This document shows, one piece after another, positions 5,685-29,468 of a stretch of DNA of 32,000 bases (the first letter of the stretch is position 1; each line of letters begins with the position of its first letter). A model generated the notes under the pieces. That model saw nothing but the letters and a program-made list of their open reading frames with translations, made no database searches and was not told the DNA's origin. The position numbers and the translations under genes are program-made. This DNA is from Aeropyrum pernix K1 (GTDB taxonomy: Archaea > Thermoproteota > Thermoprotei_A > Sulfolobales > Acidilobaceae), in contig NC_000854.2 in NCBI RefSeq assembly GCF_000011125.1, forward strand, positions 1,050,001-1,082,000, given 5' to 3'.

Positions 5685-6923
5685 CTACCGGAATTCATAG
5701 TCCTCGGCGAAGAGGAGGGCGGGGTTCTCGAGCAGCCTCTTAACCTCCATAAGGAACCTGGTCGCGTAGGCACCCTCCAGGGCTCTGTGGTCGAAGCTTA
5801 GCGACACAAACCCAATTTTCCTCGGCTTGAGCTCTCCGTCAACGTAGACAGGCCTCTCGACCAGCCTGTGGACGCCTAGTATGGCAACGTTGGGCGGGTA
5901 TATCACGGGGAAGCCTATCACGCTGCCGATGCTGCCTACGTTGGTTATAGTGAAGGTTGCTCCCGACACTTCCTCAAGGCTAAGCCTCATCTCTCTAGCC
6001 TTAGCCGTGAGATCGGCTATCTCCCTCGCTATCGCGAACAACCCCTTTTTCTCAACGTTCTTTACAACGGGGACTACGAGGCCGTGTGGCGTGTCGACCG
6101 CGAACCCGATGTTCACAGCCTTCTTAACGACGATCTCCATCTTCTCCTCGTCGAACTCGGAGTTGACTAGAGGATACTTCCTGATAGCCTTTGCCACAGC
6201 CTTGAACACGAAGGGGAGGTAGGTCAGCCTAACCCCCTTCTCCTCGGCATCCCTCTTCAGGGCCTCCCTAAGCTTAGAGAGCTCTGTGAAGTCGACCTCC
6301 TCTGCAATATAGGCGTGAGGTATCTTCGACTTGCTCAGGCTCATAGACTGGGCCATGGACCTCTTGATACCCCTTACAGGTATCCTCTCCTCAGCCTCCT
6401 CTGCGACAGGCGGGGGTGCTTCAGGCTTGGGTGCCGTGGCGAGCATCGCAGCCGCCCTCCTGACGTCATCCTCCGTAATAGCACCCCGTGGGCCTGTGCC
6501 CCTCACTCTGGCTAGGTCTACGCCGAGCTGCCGGGCCAGCCTCCTAACCCTTGGCGGTGCTCTGACTAGAATGGCAGGGGCTGCTTGCGGGGGAGGAGCA
6601 GCCGCCTCCTCAGCCTTAGGAGGCTCGACTGTCGCAGAGGGCTTCTCCGCCGCCTCTGGCGCCTTAGGAGCCTCTCCCTCCTCAACCTCAATCTCAATTA
6701 TAGGATCCCCAACCCTAACCACGTCGCCCGGCTTGGCTAGAAGCCTCACAACCCTACCCGTGTATGGGGATGGTATTTCCACCGTCGCTTTCGCAGTCAG
6801 CACCCTGACTAGAGGGCTGAACTGCTTTACAACCGCCCCCTCCTCTACTAGCCACTCTACAATCTCCCCCTCGGCTATGCCCTCTCCAATATCCGGTAGC
6901 TTTACCTGGACAATCCTACCCAC
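5685..6923 (-). CDS. Dihydrolipoamide acyltransferase (E2) of a 2-oxoacid dehydrogenase complex
   Basis: It has an N-terminal lipoyl domain (LTAKATVEIPSPYTG with the lipoyl-Lys) and Ala/Pro-rich linkers. It also has a peripheral-subunit-binding domain (PRVRRLARQLGVDLARVRGTGPRGAITEDDV) and a catalytic domain with SFDHRALEGA. The SD-like GGTGAGGGGG lies upstream. Confidence 0.9.
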   Translation of the reverse strand: MGRIVQVKLPDIGEGIAEGEIVEWLVEEGAVVKQFSPLVRVLTAKATVEIPSPYTGRVVRLLAKPGDVVRVGDPIIEIEVEEGEAPKAPEAAEKPSATVEPPKAEEAAAPPPQAAPAILVRAPPRVRRLARQLGVDLARVRGTGPRGAITEDDVRRAAAMLATAPKPEAPPPVAEEAEERIPVRGIKRSMAQSMSLSKSKIPHAYIAEEVDFTELSKLREALKRDAEEKGVRLTYLPFVFKAVAKAIRKYPLVNSEFDEEKMEIVVKKAVNIGFAVDTPHGLVVPVVKNVEKKGLFAIAREIADLTAKAREMRLSLEEVSGATFTITNVGSIGSVIGFPVIYPPNVAILGVHRLVERPVYVDGELKPRKIGFVSLSFDHRALEGAYATRFLMEVKRLLENPALLFAEDYEFR

Positions 6924-6938
6924 TAGAGACCTACCCCC

Positions 6939-7916
6939 TCACCACTGCATAACTTCTGTTACTGCCCTGTATATCTTAGCGAGGTTAGGCAAGTAGAGCT
7001 TCTCGTGGGCTAGGGGGTATGGTGTGTCGTAGCTGGCCACCCTCTTAACGGGGCCGCGTAGCAAGTCTATGTAGTTCTCGCTAATGTATGCGGCTATCTC
7101 CGCGCCCGGGCCTAGTATCTTCCTAGCCTCGTGGACTATAACGAGCCTTCCAGTCTTCTCGAGACTCTTCACAACCATATCTTTATCCCATGGCTGGAGA
7201 GTTCTGAGATCGATTATCTCGATGCTCCAGCCCCTCTTCTCTCTGAGGAGCTCAGCAGCCTCCTTGGCCAGATGCACCATAGCGCCCCATGTTACTAGGG
7301 TGACGTCCGACCCTTCCTGGACAAGCCTAGCCTGGCCCAGGGGGATTGTGTAGTCGTTGTCCGGAACCTCCTCCCTGATAGTCCTGTAGATGCTCTTAGG
7401 CTCGAGAAATATGACGGCGTCATCGCTCCGTATAGACGATTTAAGCAGCCCCTTCGCATCGTAGGGTGTGGATGGCATGACGACGTAGAGGCCTGGAGTG
7501 TGGATGAAGTACGGCTCGTTGCTCTGGCTGTGGTGCATTCCCCCTCTTATGCCGCCGCAGCAGGGCCCCCTTATTACAAGGGGCACGTTATACATGCCAC
7601 CGCTCCTGAACCTATACCAGGCCGCATTGTTTACTATCTGGTCGAACGCCTCGTATATGAAGTCGATAAACTGTATCTCCGCAACCGGCCTAAGACCGTA
7701 CATAGCCATCCCTATAGCGAACGCCACGATACCCATCTCGGTGAGGGGAGTGTCTATAACCCTCTCCTCGCCGAACTCGTCGATGAGACCCTCAGTTACG
7801 AGGAAGACTCCCCCCCTCCTGCCAACGTCCTCCCCAAGCACAACAACACTCTTATCCCGCCTCATCTCCTCCCTGAGAGCAGTGTTAAGAGCCTGCACCA
7901 TGTTCATAACAGGCAC
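6939..7916 (-). CDS. 2-oxoacid dehydrogenase E1 component, beta subunit
   Basis: The 325-aa product has a typical transketolase-like pyrimidine-binding and C-terminal domain layout (VVLGEDVG..GGVF, IDTPLTE, EPK). It lies 14 bp downstream of E1alpha, with GGGGGGTGG upstream. Confidence 0.9.
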   Translation of the reverse strand: MPVMNMVQALNTALREEMRRDKSVVVLGEDVGRRGGVFLVTEGLIDEFGEERVIDTPLTEMGIVAFAIGMAMYGLRPVAEIQFIDFIYEAFDQIVNNAAWYRFRSGGMYNVPLVIRGPCCGGIRGGMHHSQSNEPYFIHTPGLYVVMPSTPYDAKGLLKSSIRSDDAVIFLEPKSIYRTIREEVPDNDYTIPLGQARLVQEGSDVTLVTWGAMVHLAKEAAELLREKRGWSIEIIDLRTLQPWDKDMVVKSLEKTGRLVIVHEARKILGPGAEIAAYISENYIDLLRGPVKRVASYDTPYPLAHEKLYLPNLAKIYRAVTEVMQW

Positions 7917-7930
7917 CGCACGCCACCCCC

Positions 7931-9118
7931 CTACTCCTTATAGCTCAGGCCCAGCTCCTCCATAGTTTTGAGCGTCTCCTCCAGATCCCGCTCCTCCTCC
8001 TGGATGAACCAGGGCTTCTCCCCGTATACGTTCTGGAAGAACACGTTCTCCGGCAGCGGGGGCTTCGCCAGCACCTTCCTCACTATCTCTTCAACCTTGC
8101 TATTCCACTCCTCCTCTATGCTGAGGGCCTCCTTCTCGGTCAATATACCCATGCTCTCCATGAACTTCCTCATCCTCCTCAGGGGTTCATACCTCTCCAT
8201 AATTCTCTCTTCCTCACTAGTCCTGTACCTTGAGGGGTCGTCGGCCGTTGTGTGTGGGCCAAGCCTGTATGTCACAGCCTCTATCAAGGTTGGTCCACCG
8301 CCTCTCCTAGCCTTCTCCGCCGCATCGCTGACAATCTTGTACACCACCATTACATCGTTGCCATCTATCCTAACGCCCGGAACCCCATATGCAAGACCCT
8401 TAACAGCCAGTGAGGGTGCGGCAGTCTGTCTCGCCCTGGGAACGCTTATAGCCCACTGGTTGTTCTGTATCACTAAAACCGCTGGAACCTTGAACACGCC
8501 AGCGAAGTTTAGCCCGGCGTGGAAGTCGCCCCTGCTGGTGGCGCCGTCGCCGAAGAATGTGAGGGTAACCGTATCCCTGCCCAGGTACTTCATCGCGTAC
8601 GCGGCGCCCACCGAGATGGGGATCTGGTTGCCCACAGGGACGGGGGCTGGCACCAGGTTATACTTCCTGTTTCCGAATATGGCGAAGTCGCTTCCCTTCA
8701 GAGGGTCGTCAGCGTTCGCCAGAGCCCTGTCGAGAATTTCCTCCTCGCTCATACCCCTGACCAGGTAGGCGCCGAGCTCTCTATAGCTGGGGAACACCCA
8801 GTCATCTCTCCTCAAAGGCTTCGCGGCGCCCACTGCAACGGCCTCCTGCCCCTTGTTTGGGGCGTGTAGCGCAACCTTACCCATCCTCTGCAGCTTCAGA
8901 AGCCAACTGTCGATAACTCTCGCCCTGACCATGTAGGTGTATATCTCTACAATCTCCCCCTCGCTGACCTTGGGAAGAAGTTCCTCGTCGACTACCCTGC
9001 CCTCCTCGTCGACTGCCCTCTTAAACCCCAGAGCATCTTCGAGGAGAGTCTTATACTCCTCCACAACGTTTTTCTCGACAGGCTTGAAAGGAGTATCAAT
9101 AAGGCCTGTTTTACTCAT
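7931..9118 (-). CDS. 2-oxoacid dehydrogenase E1 component, alpha subunit (TPP-binding)
   Basis: The TPP motif GDGATSRGDFHAGLNFAGVFKVPAVLVIQNNQWAIS (GDG-x-NN) is present. The ORF is open to ATG 9226, but that 36-codon extension is hydrophobic and contains a TATA-like box (ATAAATAG on the minus strand, 9153-9160). ATG 9118 (MSKTGLID...) is therefore preferred. Confidence 0.85.
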   Translation of the reverse strand: MSKTGLIDTPFKPVEKNVVEEYKTLLEDALGFKRAVDEEGRVVDEELLPKVSEGEIVEIYTYMVRARVIDSWLLKLQRMGKVALHAPNKGQEAVAVGAAKPLRRDDWVFPSYRELGAYLVRGMSEEEILDRALANADDPLKGSDFAIFGNRKYNLVPAPVPVGNQIPISVGAAYAMKYLGRDTVTLTFFGDGATSRGDFHAGLNFAGVFKVPAVLVIQNNQWAISVPRARQTAAPSLAVKGLAYGVPGVRIDGNDVMVVYKIVSDAAEKARRGGGPTLIEAVTYRLGPHTTADDPSRYRTSEEERIMERYEPLRRMRKFMESMGILTEKEALSIEEEWNSKVEEIVRKVLAKPPLPENVFFQNVYGEKPWFIQEEERDLEETLKTMEELGLSYKE

Positions 9119-10647: not shown

Positions 10648-13763
<3,116 letters not shown>

Positions 13764-25925: not shown

Positions 25926-25941
25926 TTTTGAAGGGAGGCTG

Positions 25942-28317
25942 CTACTCTCCCAGCCTCTGTCTAGCCTCTTCTAGCTTCATTTCAGCCTCGTTTAGCAGAT
26001 CCTCAGCCTGGCCTATAGCTTCTCTAGCCTCGCCCAGCTTTCCATCACCCAGTTTGTCCGTAGCATCCTGCAGCTTCTCAATAGCCTCTTCAATATTACT
26101 TCTCGCCTCTTCTATCAGGCGTAGAGCCTCCCTATCTCCCATTCTCCTCGCCTTGGCTTCAAGCATGGCTGCCTCTGTGTTGAGTTCAGCAGCCTTCTCC
26201 CGAAGCTCCTCTATTAGCCTCCTCAATTCATCTATTAGATCTCCTATTGCCTGCTCCACCATACTCCTTATATCCCTCACCATTGATACAGCCTCTTCTA
26301 TTACATCTCTGGCTTCTCCGAGCTTTTGTCTTGCACCATCTATATCACCCTCTTTCGCGAGGCTATCAGCCTCCTCTAGAAGACTCCTGGCCTGGTCGAG
26401 CTTCCCAAGGACCTCATCTATAGCTGCCTGTATCTCTTCAGTTAGTACACCAGCCTCTCTAGCCTTCTCTGCTATATCCTCGATCTCCTCCTGTAAATCT
26501 TTCACCCTGTCAAGCAGCTCTTCCACCTGGTTGAGGACCTCGGAAACGGCTTCCTGAGCGGCTTCAATAGCTTTCTCCGCAAGCTCCTTGGCTTCTTCAG
26601 CGATTGAAGCTGCTTCCTCGGCCAGCACTATAGCCTCGCCATAACGGCCATTACTGTAAGCCTCCTTCGCCGCTTCAAGCTTCTCCTTCGCCTCCTCCAG
26701 CCTGTTTAGAGCCTCTTCAACAGCCTCAGATCCTGATAGCTGGGCTGCCAGCTGGAGCTTCGCCTCAGCTTTAGCCAGCGCCTCCTCAGCCTCCTCTATA
26801 GCCTCCCTAGCCCGCTCCGCATATTCTTCGACCACCTCTAGTATAGCTTCAGCTGTATCGAGTTTGCTGTCGGCCTTTTCTAGGGCAGCCTCTGCCTGGG
26901 CTATCTTCTCCTTAGCCTCTGCAATCCTCCCCTCGTCCAGCAGGCTCCTCGCCTCTGCTAGCAGGGAAGAGGCTCTATCTATGAGAGCCCCAGCTTCATC
27001 CAGTATCTCCTGTACTTCGCCCTGGTTCGCACTGGCAGCCTTCTGCTGTAGCGTCTCGAGCTCCTCCATGAGCTCCCCGATTTCAATCTCAACCTCCGTT
27101 AACTCTGCAAGAACCTCTGCTGCTTCCGTCTCCTCAGCTTCCCTGGTAGTTGTAGTCGTTATGGTAGTGATGGTAGTCTCTGTTGCTGTTTCCACTGCCG
27201 TCCCAGTCTCGGTGGTCGGGCCGCTGAGGAGAATTACCTCTGCTGCCGAGGCTAGGGCCTGGGCCTTGGATAGGTAGCCTTGCGCTCTTGCAATCTCTCT
27301 CATTACCTCGCCAACCTTAGCTCCTTCTTGTAGGAGAATGTAAGCCCTGTCAAGCCTCTCCCTGGCCTTCGCAAGGGCTTCTTCAGCCTCCTCCAATAGC
27401 TTCTGCGCCTCAGGGTTTTGGTCAAGCTCAGCGCCGTACTCCCCTTTTATCGCCTCTATCTTGGCACCAACTTCCTGATAGATTGCCTCGAGCTTCTGCA
27501 ATCTAGCCTCCATTATCTTCTGGACTACAGCCTTACCAACACCGCTCCCGTGGTCTCCAAGAGTCGAAGTAGAGGCTGCTACACTTTCTAATATAGACCT
27601 TGCCAAGAGTATACCGCTGAGAGCGCTGTCAAGGGCTGCCTCCACCTCGCCACCATCTTCGGCCTCAATCTCCGCCTTCAACGTCTCGAGCTTGGAAGCG
27701 ACTTCGCCCAGTATTTCTATAGCACGCTCTACACCCACAGCCTGAGTAGAGCCGACTGCCGCTACCTCTATCGCACCAGCCGATTCAACTGCAGCCTCTA
27801 CAGCGACGAGTATGTCTACAGCTTTACCTGGGTCGCCCCTCGCAGCCTCTCTTAGGGCTTTCGCGAGATCAAGCAGTATAGGATCTCCCTTATCCTTCCC
27901 CAGCTTCTCGAGAACTAGTGATGCCCTTGCCAAAACCTCCCTTGTCTTAACCTGCTTGACCGCCTCATCGTCAATCCTCTCTGCTATTAAAAGTCCTATC
28001 TTTTCATTAATTGCCATTCCTAGCTCCGCGAGCCTCTCTGCCTCGCTGGGCGAAAGAGAACGTACATCTTCCAACGAGGCTATCTCCTCCACAATCTCCC
28101 TTTCATCTTCACTCAGCATCTGCAATAGCCAGGCATGCCTCTCTAGGACAAGCTTGAAATTTATAGAGAGGACCTCTAGGGCTATATATGGGCTAACGCT
28201 GAGATCTACATTAGCACCCCTGTTTTCCTGTGCTACTGCAACGGCTGGGGCCACGGTTGGTAGTAGTATAGCAAACACTAGTGCAACCCCAACCAGTCTC
28301 AAAACGCTAACACTCAT
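25942..28317 (-). CDS. Secreted Ala/Glu/Leu-rich coiled-coil repeat protein (791 aa) with a central Thr-rich linker
   Basis: It has an N-terminal signal-like segment (MSVSVLRLVGVALVFAILLPTVAPAVAVAQ) and no other hydrophobic helix. Long heptad-like helical sequence makes up the rest. Five to six copies of a ~45-aa module end in A-x2-L-x2-(E/D/N)G-x3-(E/G)A... A strong SD GAGGTGGG and a TATA-like box lie upstream. Confidence 0.75.
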   Translation of the reverse strand: MSVSVLRLVGVALVFAILLPTVAPAVAVAQENRGANVDLSVSPYIALEVLSINFKLVLERHAWLLQMLSEDEREIVEEIASLEDVRSLSPSEAERLAELGMAINEKIGLLIAERIDDEAVKQVKTREVLARASLVLEKLGKDKGDPILLDLAKALREAARGDPGKAVDILVAVEAAVESAGAIEVAAVGSTQAVGVERAIEILGEVASKLETLKAEIEAEDGGEVEAALDSALSGILLARSILESVAASTSTLGDHGSGVGKAVVQKIMEARLQKLEAIYQEVGAKIEAIKGEYGAELDQNPEAQKLLEEAEEALAKARERLDRAYILLQEGAKVGEVMREIARAQGYLSKAQALASAAEVILLSGPTTETGTAVETATETTITTITTTTTREAEETEAAEVLAELTEVEIEIGELMEELETLQQKAASANQGEVQEILDEAGALIDRASSLLAEARSLLDEGRIAEAKEKIAQAEAALEKADSKLDTAEAILEVVEEYAERAREAIEEAEEALAKAEAKLQLAAQLSGSEAVEEALNRLEEAKEKLEAAKEAYSNGRYGEAIVLAEEAASIAEEAKELAEKAIEAAQEAVSEVLNQVEELLDRVKDLQEEIEDIAEKAREAGVLTEEIQAAIDEVLGKLDQARSLLEEADSLAKEGDIDGARQKLGEARDVIEEAVSMVRDIRSMVEQAIGDLIDELRRLIEELREKAAELNTEAAMLEAKARRMGDREALRLIEEARSNIEEAIEKLQDATDKLGDGKLGEAREAIGQAEDLLNEAEMKLEEARQRLGE
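27145..27216 (-). repeat. Thr-codon low-complexity tract encoding TTETGTAVETATETTITTITTTTT (residues 368-391 of the coiled-coil protein)
   Basis: Direct translation of the minus strand shows an imperfect ACN/GGT-rich reiteration (ggtagt... on the plus strand). Confidence 0.8.
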
Positions 28318-28363
28318 GTTATCCCACCTCAGAGCTTCCGCAAAACCGGGTAAACTTGGTTCC

Positions 28364-28373
28364 TAATTTAAAA
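28364..28373 (-). promoter_or_regulatory. TATA-like box for the coiled-coil gene
   Basis: TTTTAAATTA on the minus strand lies ~47-56 bp upstream of ATG 28317, with SD GAGGTGGG in between. It is flanked by the inverted GTTCC (28359-63) and GGAAC (28380-84). Confidence 0.4.
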
Positions 28374-28416
28374 CCCCCTGGAACAACAGCTTTAGCGCCT
28401 GGTTCCACCTGGTGTG

Positions 28417-28426
28417 GGAACGTTCC
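28417..28426. promoter_or_regulatory. Perfect 10-bp palindrome GGAACGTTCC, a candidate operator
   Basis: It is read directly from the sequence and lies centrally between the two divergent promoters. It is one of six GGAAC/GTTCC pentamers in the 191-bp spacer. Confidence 0.4.
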
Positions 28427-28460
28427 GCTACTCGGGAAGTTTCGGGTTTGTAGCTATTCT

Positions 28461-28468
28461 TATTAAAA
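28461..28468 (+). promoter_or_regulatory. TATA-like box for the membrane wHTH gene
   Basis: TATTAAAA lies 41-48 bp upstream of ATG 28509. GGGGTG, an SD-like motif, sits at 28495-28500. Confidence 0.4.
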
Positions 28469-28508
28469 TCTTGCACCCAACAAGAGGACCCCCTGGGGTG
28501 TTCCCAGC

Positions 28509-29468
28509 ATGCTACTGGTGAAGAAGGCACAAGCCGGGAGGGCAATTGTGTTAGTCCTACTAATGGTTATCGCAGTACTGGCAGTCGGTCAACTCGCATT
28601 GGCCCAACAGGAAGCCTCTATAAATAGCGTTGAAGTCACCATTAGAGGGGATGGAGTAGCGGAGGCTAGAGTCCAAGCTGAGGCCGGGCCTGGTTTAGCG
28701 AGCATAGAACTGCCCGCGCCTCCTATAGTCACTACCATATTAGTTACTACCGCTGACGGGAATAGTATCCCGCCCATAGTTGAGGGGAACACGTTAATAG
28801 TCCCTCTAGAGGAGAAGACTTCGCTGGAAGTGTCATATATTGTGGATACAAAGGCTAACAATGGCGTGTTTAGCTTTGATGTTACCCCTCCTGGAGTGCC
28901 TGTGAAGCTTATCCTCGAACAGGGAATCATACTCTTAGGTCTTCCCTCCGGCATAACCTCCTACGATAAAAAGGATGGTACTCTAGAGATACTGTTCAGC
29001 GAGCCCTCAACCATCTCGTATGTCCCCGCAGAATATGCTGGAACCCAGCCAGCTGAGACGGCGACTGATGGAGGGGGTGAGGGAACAGGTACCGTAACAA
29101 CAGGAGCAGCTGAAACAACTGGAGTAAAGGGATCCTGGCAAATAGCAGCTGCCATCATCCTTGCCGCCGTTATAATAATAGCGGGAGGTGCGGTGCTCTA
29201 CATGTACAGGAAGAAGAGCGGTGGAAACGGTGTTGACGCGGTTGTGACGTCCCTAGACTCTACCGATAAGCTCATTCTTGATACTCTGAAAAACGCTGGA
29301 GGCACATCCGAGCAGCCAGCCCTACTCAAGGCCACCGGCCTCCCTAAATCTACGCTTTGGAGGAGGCTGAGAAAGCTCGAGGCTATGGGGTACGTCAGGA
29401 TTATCAAGAAAGGTAAGTCAAATGTCGTAGAGCTTGTGAAACATTACGAGAAGGAACAGGAGGAATAG
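28509..29468 (+). CDS. Single-pass membrane protein with an extracellular beta-rich domain and a C-terminal cytoplasmic winged-helix DNA-binding domain
   Basis: It has a signal/anchor segment (AIVLVLLMVIAVLAVGQLALAQQ) and a ~150-aa extracytoplasmic domain. A Thr/Gly-rich linker (about 29038-29135) and a TM helix WQIAAAIILAAVIIIAGGAVLYMY + RKK (29136-29207) follow. The C-terminus (about 29265-29438), DKLILDTLKNAGGTSEQPALLKATGLPKSTLWRRLRKLEAMGYVRIIKKGKSNVVEL, has a typical MarR/TrmB/ArsR-type wHTH pattern. Confidence 0.7.
   Translation: MLLVKKAQAGRAIVLVLLMVIAVLAVGQLALAQQEASINSVEVTIRGDGVAEARVQAEAGPGLASIELPAPPIVTTILVTTADGNSIPPIVEGNTLIVPLEEKTSLEVSYIVDTKANNGVFSFDVTPPGVPVKLILEQGIILLGLPSGITSYDKKDGTLEILFSEPSTISYVPAEYAGTQPAETATDGGGEGTGTVTTGAAETTGVKGSWQIAAAIILAAVIIIAGGAVLYMYRKKSGGNGVDAVVTSLDSTDKLILDTLKNAGGTSEQPALLKATGLPKSTLWRRLRKLEAMGYVRIIKKGKSNVVELVKHYEKEQEE

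Follow-up and report, generated by a model that had tools for sequence, protein, structure and literature searches.

We analysed a window of 32,000 nucleotides from Aeropyrum pernix K1 (NC_000854.2, positions 1,050,001 to 1,082,000; all positions below are those of the window), which contains a divergent gene pair with a common control region. The gene on the minus strand (25942-28317, ATG start) encodes a 791-aa all-alpha protein that is predicted to be secreted and has no membrane anchor; we refer to it as the partner. The gene on the plus strand (28509-29468, ATG start) encodes a 319-aa protein (BAA80712.1) predicted to be a type-I membrane protein with a winged helix-turn-helix (wHTH) domain, the regulator. 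The 191 bp between them (28318-28508) are retained in A. camini and partly in an Aeropyrum metagenome-assembled genome (MAG). An earlier reading made from the DNA letters (the sequence-only reading) had reported the same two open reading frames (ORFs) and spacer, and its coordinates were reproduced here. The regulator product shares 100% identity with BAA80712.1/WP_010866544.1 of A. pernix K1 (UniProt Q9YB86), which is named "putative transcriptional regulator, Lrp family" in GenBank and UniRef. Both genes are also predicted by gene callers in further A. pernix assemblies as well as in A. camini, whose pair encodes proteins of 795 and 314 aa separated by a spacer of 187 bp.

Architecture of the two proteins

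The sequence-only reading had portrayed the 319-aa product as a type-I-like membrane protein in which an outward-facing, beta-rich domain is connected through a Thr/Gly linker and one transmembrane (TM) helix to a cytoplasmic wHTH, and AlphaFold2 (AF2) modelling, hydropathy and Pfam matches all agree with this layout. The hydropathy profile (KD19) has two strong peaks, starting at residues 13 (2.96) and 212 (2.88). The first lies in a predicted signal peptide (residues 1-32; 28509-28604, plus strand, as for all regulator segments) with a putative cleavage site between ALA and QQ, and the second coincides with an AF2 helix at residues 212-231 (29142-29201). In the AF2 model, which was built from a five-sequence alignment, an N-terminal helix precedes a beta domain at residues 33-173 with a predicted local distance difference test score (pLDDT) of about 90, corresponding to the extracellular beta-sandwich that we assign to residues 33-175 (28605-29033). 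The Thr/Gly-rich linker (residues 176-211; 29034-29141), predicted to be disordered at 179-211, leads into the TM helix, which is followed by a short disordered tether of only about 17 residues and by the wHTH (residues 249-309; 29253-29435), modelled at residues 251-309 with a pLDDT of about 88. Among homologues, the linker ranges from about 30 to more than 100 residues.

The orientation of the protein was assessed in 29 regulator homologues. These contain 98 N-x-S/T sequons between signal peptide and TM helix and none after the helix, while the number of K and R residues is 27 in the 15 residues before the helix compared to 98 in the 15 residues after it. From the sequon distribution and these positive-inside counts we conclude that the topology is N-out/C-in, single-pass type I. 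Both the TM helix and the wHTH on which the sequence-only reading depended are thus present.

The C-terminal wHTH is Lrp/MarR-like. HTH_24 (Pfam) matched residues 249-297 above its cut-off (E 3.6e-9) and DUF7343 matched residues 251-309 (30.3 bits, cut-off 27.6); HTH_24/MarR_2 was matched by 42 of the 44 family members that were scanned. The AsnC-type HTH model scored 17.6 bits, which is below its cut-off of 27, and the HTH occupies a C-terminal position. No RAM/AsnC_trans_reg domain was matched in the regulator by Pfam or NCBIfam, and the protein stops 10 residues past the wHTH. "Lrp family" is an inaccurate name for the regulator, since the RAM domain is absent. Among solved structures, the cytoplasmic part comes closest in sequence to the DNA-binding domain of FL11/PH1519 from P. 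horikoshii (E 0.003), with an alignment of 50 residues that includes the recognition helix. The stretch GLPK[ST]TLWR is nearly invariant in the regulator family, with PK[ST]TLWR as the recognition helix.

The ectodomain belongs to no Pfam family in any of the 44 members, in which every match falls in the wHTH. Foldseek aligned the ectodomain model to the N-terminal beta domain of M1 aminopeptidases (E 2e-5, 13% identity), with a TM-score of 0.28 when normalised to the 319-residue query. Judging from this model, the likeness to Peptidase_M1_N is a resemblance in fold only, and the catalytic domain is absent.

The partner had been described in the sequence-only reading as a signal-peptide-bearing, otherwise anchorless coiled-coil repeat protein rich in Ala, Glu and Leu. 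The absence of a further anchor is in line with hydropathy: the only hydrophobic segment is N-terminal (residues 11-29, with a KD19 peak of 2.45), all later stretches stay at or below 1.61, and the N-terminal segment lies in a predicted signal peptide (residues 1-29; 28231-28317, minus strand, as for all partner segments) with a putative cleavage site between AVA and Q. An N-terminal helical domain (residues 30-365; 27223-28230), the best conserved part among orthologues, is followed by a Thr-rich linker (residues 366-392; 27142-27222), where the AF2 pLDDT is below 50 for residues 368-391, and by a C-terminal repeat region (residues 393-791; 25945-27141) of about four 98-aa units, each with a helical hairpin motif. 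The protein consists of 17.6% E, 17.3% A and 12.5% L and has neither Cys nor a sequon. Its AF2 model, made without an alignment, is all-helical, with helices of about 60 and 28 residues alternating in the C-terminal half at a pLDDT of about 90. The motif LLxEAxxLxxEGxhxxAxxxhxxA occurs in five copies that start near residues 307, 438, 532, 632 and 734. Composition, repeats and the all-helical model agree with an Ala/Glu/Leu repeat protein, whereas a coiled coil is not established: the modelled helix pattern is compatible with antiparallel hairpin or spectrin-like bundles instead, and a canonical two-stranded coiled coil is a possible reading that found no support in AF2. The Thr-rich linkers of both proteins, which the sequence-only reading likened to those of O-glycosylated archaeal surface proteins, may carry such glycans. 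Based on the model, we describe the partner as a putative secreted helical-hairpin repeat protein.

Family scans with the partner returned sub-threshold matches alone, to the helical proteins EzrA, Rad50 and SMC; the EzrA Pfam model scored 35.6 bits, below its cut-off of 39.6. No fold in the PDB matched the partner model in Foldseek at E <= 0.001, where EzrA and spectrin gave weak matches. The 791-aa protein obtained no match in a word-index homology search, in which low-complexity words swamped the candidates, and the exact 791-aa sequence was absent from the cluster table. The experimentally characterised S-layer protein of A. pernix is UniProt Q9YEG7, as cited in a 2026 preprint. The partner is unlikely to be this protein; Q9YEG7 is likely to derive from a different locus, because the regulator beside the 791-aa gene is Q9YB86. 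Opposite the partner gene, three long Ser/Ala-rich ORFs lie on the plus strand (25928-26557, 26864-27277 and 27812-28366). These are shadow ORFs caused by the GAG/GCC-rich codons of the 791-aa gene and not genes.

Conservation of the pair and of boxes at the partner promoter

Used as query in a full HMMER search, the regulator profile retrieved 1554 proteins at an E value of up to 1e-3 and, at E <= 1e-10, 331 clusters; among the matches listed, most are full-length proteins of 280-430 aa with the same layout. A 44-member profile search of the word index revealed no further family members. We fetched loci from reference genomes and MAGs of Aeropyrum, Acidilobaceae, Pyrodictiaceae, Hyperthermus, Desulfurococcales and Thermoproteota as well as from metagenomes, for which the scan used a 16-sequence regulator alignment; loci of distant representatives were added later. 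An adjacent secreted helical partner was found in nearly every locus with sufficient flanking DNA. The sequence-only reading had proposed to be judged by the co-occurrence of the two genes in related genomes; the pair keeps together in Aeropyrum, Acidilobaceae, Pyrodictiaceae and Hyperthermus as well as in many metagenomic lineages, with identities as low as about 20%. Neither this comparison nor the search for a TM helix and wHTH refuted that reading, which is supported at the computational level.

Gene order varies among the loci (numbered with L). The partner is divergent in the window and in L001-L004, L007, L008, L014 and L038; Aeropyrum, Pyrodictiaceae and Hyperthermus have this order. 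It lies in tandem downstream of the regulator in L016-L029, L039, L040 and L045, and this is the order in a large metagenomic clade. It is convergent in two lineages (L032/L034 and L053) and located upstream on the same strand in L041, L049-L051 and L054-L056. The adjacent partners are 299-1115 aa long and share a signal peptide, the lack of any further hydrophobic segment and a helix-favouring composition. The N-terminal domain of the A. pernix partner is 38% identical to the Aeropyrum MAG partner over 330 aa (E 7e-40). In hhalign comparisons, the A. pernix partner aligned to Pyrodictiaceae partners with 98.7% probability (E 5e-16, score 135; reversed-sequence controls 45-50) and to tandem-type partners with 92% probability (E 7e-7, scores 61-63; reversed-sequence controls 27-39). 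On these alignments, homology between the partners of Aeropyrum and Pyrodictiaceae appears solid, and that to the tandem clade moderate.

The partners also differ in sequon content and in their C termini. Those of other lineages usually carry 10-38 N-glycosylation sequons, which are frequently placed in hairpin turns that read xGN[YLIV][TS]xA (typically GN[YLIV][TS]), and the corresponding regulator ectodomains carry 4-7. The Aeropyrum regulator and partner have 0-2 sequons, and at the hairpin-turn positions the Aeropyrum partner has EGR, NGR, EGD or DGK. Several partners from outside Aeropyrum (L004, L007, L008, L024, L025, L027, L045 and L056) end in a Ser- or Pro-rich tail, often of the form ...PP(I/V)TPPGxSKxKP or ...MPxPPxPxxKP, which may be a sorting or attachment signal; the A. 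pernix partner has no such tail. One contig, L029, holds two module copies (438-2733 and 5947-8832) in opposite order, as a partner-like gene precedes a wHTH-like gene in one copy and follows it in the other, from which it follows that the pair can duplicate as a unit. In a clade without the partner (L010:175-1206; L042-L044, L047 and L048), the membrane wHTH gene is preceded by a gene for a 343-aa protein with an N-terminal DUF7343/MarR-type wHTH and is followed, in the L010 clade, by a convergent gene for a thioredoxin-like membrane protein.

The control region of A. pernix contains an array of GGAAC/GTTCC boxes. Starting at the partner, a putative Shine-Dalgarno-like GAGGTG (28325-28330, minus strand) lies 7 nt upstream of the partner ATG. 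Box 1 (GTTCC, 28359-28363) abuts, on the downstream side, the putative TATA-like element of the partner, TTTTAAATTA (28364-28373, minus strand), which is identical in A. camini and near-identical in L001. Box 2 (GGAAC, 28380-28384) forms an inverted repeat with box 1 around this element, 21 bp from centre to centre, and the same arrangement is found in A. camini. Box 3 (GTTCC, 28402-28406) is followed by boxes 4 and 5, which together make up the perfect palindrome GGAACGTTCC (28417-28426), the candidate core operator, identical in A. camini. A degenerate box (GTTTC, 28439-28443) precedes the putative TATA-like element of the regulator, TTATTAAAAT (28460-28469, plus strand), whose ATTAAAA is retained in A. 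camini. Box 6 (GTTCC, 28500-28504), situated between a Shine-Dalgarno-like GGGGTG and the regulator ATG, is not kept in A. camini. In an alignment of the spacers of A. pernix, A. camini and the Aeropyrum MAG, the conserved blocks include the palindrome, and L001 and L002 have variants of it with a 1-nt spacer.

The boxes were recovered as the top 5-mer in an unbiased scan of eight divergent spacers, with 39 occurrences of GGAAC/GTTCC compared to 3.4-3.9 expected (P about 1e-25 to 1e-27) and presence in 8/8. The boxes of tandem loci occupy the short stretch from regulator stop to partner start, directly upstream of the TATA-like element of the partner, and none were found upstream of the regulator gene. 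In about 24 of 28 loci, the densest G[GA]AAC cluster of the whole locus of 2-17 kb is located 50-130 nt upstream of the partner start. When promoters were pooled, 24 partner promoters had a mean of 3.7 G[GA]AAC/GTT[CT]C boxes compared to 0.37 in 159 control promoters drawn from the same loci, and at least three boxes were present in 19/24 partner but 2/159 control promoters (Mann-Whitney P 3e-19). Lineages fetched after the motif had been defined (L051 and L053-L056) contain 5, 3, 3, 2 and 3 boxes in the same arrangement. The box arrays, situated just upstream of the TATA-like element of the partner in 24 lineages, thus track the partner promoter irrespective of gene order.

Within the window, the palindrome occurs twice compared to 0.02 copies expected. 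The second perfect GGAACGTTCC (12310-12319) lies inside the gene for the methylmalonyl-CoA mutase large subunit (12066-13763, minus strand), about 216 nt upstream of the gene for the B12-binding subunit, and could be a secondary site or a coincidence. Rfam and tRNA scans of the window gave no matches. In Aeropyrum, the pair is flanked by sufC/sufB/sufD on one side and by citrate synthase and citG on the other, which look unrelated to it. In the A. camini draft BBBZ01000008 (L013:1208-2381), sufD is broken up into genes of 183 and 198 aa, whereas the complete genome of this species has it intact at 391 aa; the split therefore probably stems from a sequencing frameshift.

Proposed mechanism and alternative explanations

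We consider it probable that the pair constitutes a two-gene envelope-signalling module, in which a transmembrane transcription regulator controls the adjacent gene for an envelope protein. After cleavage of the signal peptide, the beta-sandwich would be exposed outside the cell, while the single TM helix and the tether of about 17 residues would keep the wHTH against the cytoplasmic face of the membrane. Judging from its conservation and that of the boxes, the wHTH most likely binds G[GA]AAC/GTT[CT]C and, by occupying boxes around or upstream of the partner TATA, would set the output of the secreted helical-hairpin (glyco)protein. Since boxes lie on both sides of the partner TATA element, we favour repression, in which the wHTH would occlude TATA-binding protein and transcription factor B; activation from the upstream boxes is an alternative, and the upstream array could also support cooperative binding. 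A change outside the cell would alter the oligomeric state or conformation of the ectodomain and thereby DNA binding. Candidate inputs are the partner protein itself, another envelope component or a physical cue, and sensing of the partner is speculation. Co-translational insertion would hold the locus at the membrane, reachable by the tethered regulator, because both genes encode putative Sec substrates. The strict adjacency of regulator and partner likewise makes sense if the regulator is tethered, since it could then not diffuse.

A more specific version of this proposal, which we put forward tentatively, is that the beta-sandwich acts as a receptor that docks the anchorless partner between membrane and S-layer. 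Occupancy of the ectodomain would then be transmitted through the TM helix, so that the membrane-held wHTH would control the partner promoter in cis, resulting in a closed-loop "surface-occupancy" homeostat.

Several points weigh against the envelope-signalling module as a whole. Outside Aeropyrum and Pyrodictiaceae, partner homology amounts to moderate profile scores between compositionally biased helical sequences, and in two lineages, the L010 group and L031, the regulator has no adjacent partner. Part of the data that entered the pooled test had already served to find the box motif, and some of the loci are related. The boxes could be read by another factor. The half-site centres of GGAACGTTCC are 5-6 bp apart, which is unusually tight for a wHTH dimer and leaves the candidate binding geometry uncertain. 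Finally, given a tether of 17 residues, the promoter would have to approach the membrane to within a few nanometres.

The difficulty of reaching DNA from the membrane with so short a tether is also the starting point for an alternative that we regard as unlikely, although it deserves attention, namely that an extracytoplasmic cue triggers a protease of the site-1/site-2 or M48 type to free the wHTH of roughly 9 kDa, which would then act on the same boxes as a soluble regulator. A protease could plausibly attack the long disordered linker outside the cell, and a gene for a zinc-ribbon and Peptidase_M48 protein adjoins the module in tandem-type loci (L022:4883-5827, L025:4922-5848 and L019:8451-9476), remaining adjacent in L019 even though it has moved to the other side of the pair. 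However, no protease gene lies beside the pair in the Aeropyrum and Pyrodictiaceae loci, and the M48 adjacency may reflect gene order inherited within one clade. ToxR, CadC and ArnR act without release (PMC10269533, PMC6396743), and the lone wHTH has no obvious dimerisation domain.

Rather improbable, in our view, is a mainly structural role, in which the beta-sandwich docks or assembles the helical protein at the surface, the wHTH serves as a protein-interaction domain or as a non-specific tether to DNA or the nucleoid, and some other factor reads the GGAAC boxes. Such a role would fit a partner without an anchor of its own and a pairing that persists in all orientations, including operon-like tandems, as expected for interacting proteins; a near-invariant recognition helix in very divergent members could likewise reflect a conserved ligand other than DNA. 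The interaction itself is conjectural, though, and the wHTH exceeds the score cut-off of DNA-binding HTH families and can be aligned to the DNA-binding domain of FL11 over the recognition helix. Moreover, conserved operator and conserved recognition helix are inherited together, as a dedicated regulator-target pair predicts. An ordinary soluble Lrp/AsnC regulator next to an unrelated hypothetical protein by chance is hardly credible: the database name and the HTH_24 and AsnC-type HTH matches speak for it, but the missing RAM/AsnC_trans_reg domain and an HTH that lies C-terminally behind signal peptide, ectodomain and TM helix rule out the soluble regulator, and conserved synteny down to very low identity together with the common cis-element in the form of box arrays rules out chance adjacency.

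Significance and comparison with known systems

Transmembrane transcription regulators (TTRs) form a recognised class, of which one census found 1,384 in archaea, listing four for A. pernix K1 (PMC10269533). In bacteria they bind DNA from their membrane position, as do ArnR/ArnR1 in Sulfolobus (PMC10269533, PMC6396743). The 319-aa protein possesses two features of the TTR definition (Demey et al. 2023), a predicted DNA-binding domain and at least one transmembrane region; that it would also regulate transcription while residing in the membrane is supported indirectly by the conserved boxes at the partner promoter. The one-component transmembrane signalling architecture proposed in the sequence-only reading is therefore sound as regards domain layout, whereas the class as such is already recognised, including in archaea (PMC10269533). 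Although the class is known, this regulator family, its partner and the candidate operator are uncharacterised, and we found no literature on the regulator family, the ectodomain, the partner or the GGAAC boxes. Compared to the sequence-only reading, the family-wide synteny and the candidate GGAAC-box operator are new.

In archaea, studies of transcription factors tethered to the membrane are few, the cited examples being ArnR and ArnR1, and how archaea sense and maintain their envelope is largely obscure. The module offers a concrete entry point in the form of a compact, testable system with a 319-aa regulator, a candidate operator (the GGAAC boxes, including the palindrome at 28417-28426) and a defined target gene, which in turn represents a widespread and uncharacterised class of putative secreted helical (glyco)proteins. 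It also corrects the "Lrp family" annotation and adds a new extracellular domain family. In addition, the reversed type-I topology and the very short tether bear on how membrane-bound factors gain access to DNA.

The closest functional parallels in bacteria are the regulators ToxR, CadC and TcpP, including the pairs ToxR-ToxS and TcpP-TcpH, which are also single-pass proteins with a cytoplasmic winged helix, an extracytoplasmic sensor and no phosphorelay, and which are often encoded beside a partner and near their target promoter (PMC10269533). However, in ToxR-type proteins the OmpR-type wHTH is N-terminal and the periplasmic domain C-terminal, an order that is reversed in the A. pernix regulator. 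Their wHTH is Trans_reg_C, to which the 319-aa protein has no Pfam match, its wHTH being Lrp/MarR-like; the domain that marks ToxR-like proteins is thus absent. Furthermore, the ToxR-type partner is a small, membrane-anchored, lipocalin-like protein instead of a large, putatively secreted helical one, and the A. pernix regulator would work on an archaeal TATA/TFB promoter.

Within archaea, ArnR and ArnR1, the archaellin activators of Sulfolobus acidocaldarius, are likewise crenarchaeal membrane HTH regulators that act on boxes in the promoter of a surface-structure gene (PMC6396743; PMC13286277). In ArnR, as described there, the HTH is N-terminal and cytoplasmic, the TM helices are C-terminal and a sizeable ectodomain is missing, which is the opposite order to that of the A. 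pernix regulator (PMC6396743; PMC13286277). While ArnR targets the archaellin gene, the candidate target in A. pernix is the adjacent gene for the secreted helical protein. No sequence relationship between ArnR and the 319-aa regulator was detected in our analysis, and the architecture of the latter is not that of ArnR.

At the level of domains, the regulator resembles the Lrp/AsnC protein FL11 (PDB 2e1c, 1ri7) in its HTH_24-type DNA-binding domain over 50 aligned residues, but it lacks the C-terminal RAM domain for ligand binding and oligomerisation, is membrane-embedded and carries its HTH at the C terminus. The partner resembles EzrA and spectrin in the alternation of long and short helices, with a period of about 98 residues in the C-terminal half. 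Unlike the predicted secreted partner, EzrA is cytoplasmic with an N-terminal TM anchor, and since scores are sub-threshold, we do not claim homology.

As regards gene arrangement, the pair recalls CpxP-CpxAR/Spy, in which a secreted all-alpha protein is encoded divergently from a membrane sensor with a common control region and feeds back on the extracytoplasmic domain of the sensor. By analogy, the A. pernix partner may be regarded as CpxP-like, being a divergent, putatively secreted helical protein with a common control region. In contrast to the module described here, Cpx works by two-component phosphorelay and has a response regulator that is soluble, and CpxP is a protein of about 150 aa with LTXXQ motifs, whereas the partners here have 300-1100 aa and xG(N)hT/SxA hairpin repeats, and feedback by them is conjectural. 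By analogy, then, the module would work like a ToxR/CadC-type one-component system combined with a CpxP-like partner, yet it lies outside those families, because their defining domains were tested for and are absent. If the surface-occupancy homeostat proved true, it would be a one-protein archaeal counterpart of CpxP-CpxA feedback that is widespread in hyperthermophilic Thermoproteota.

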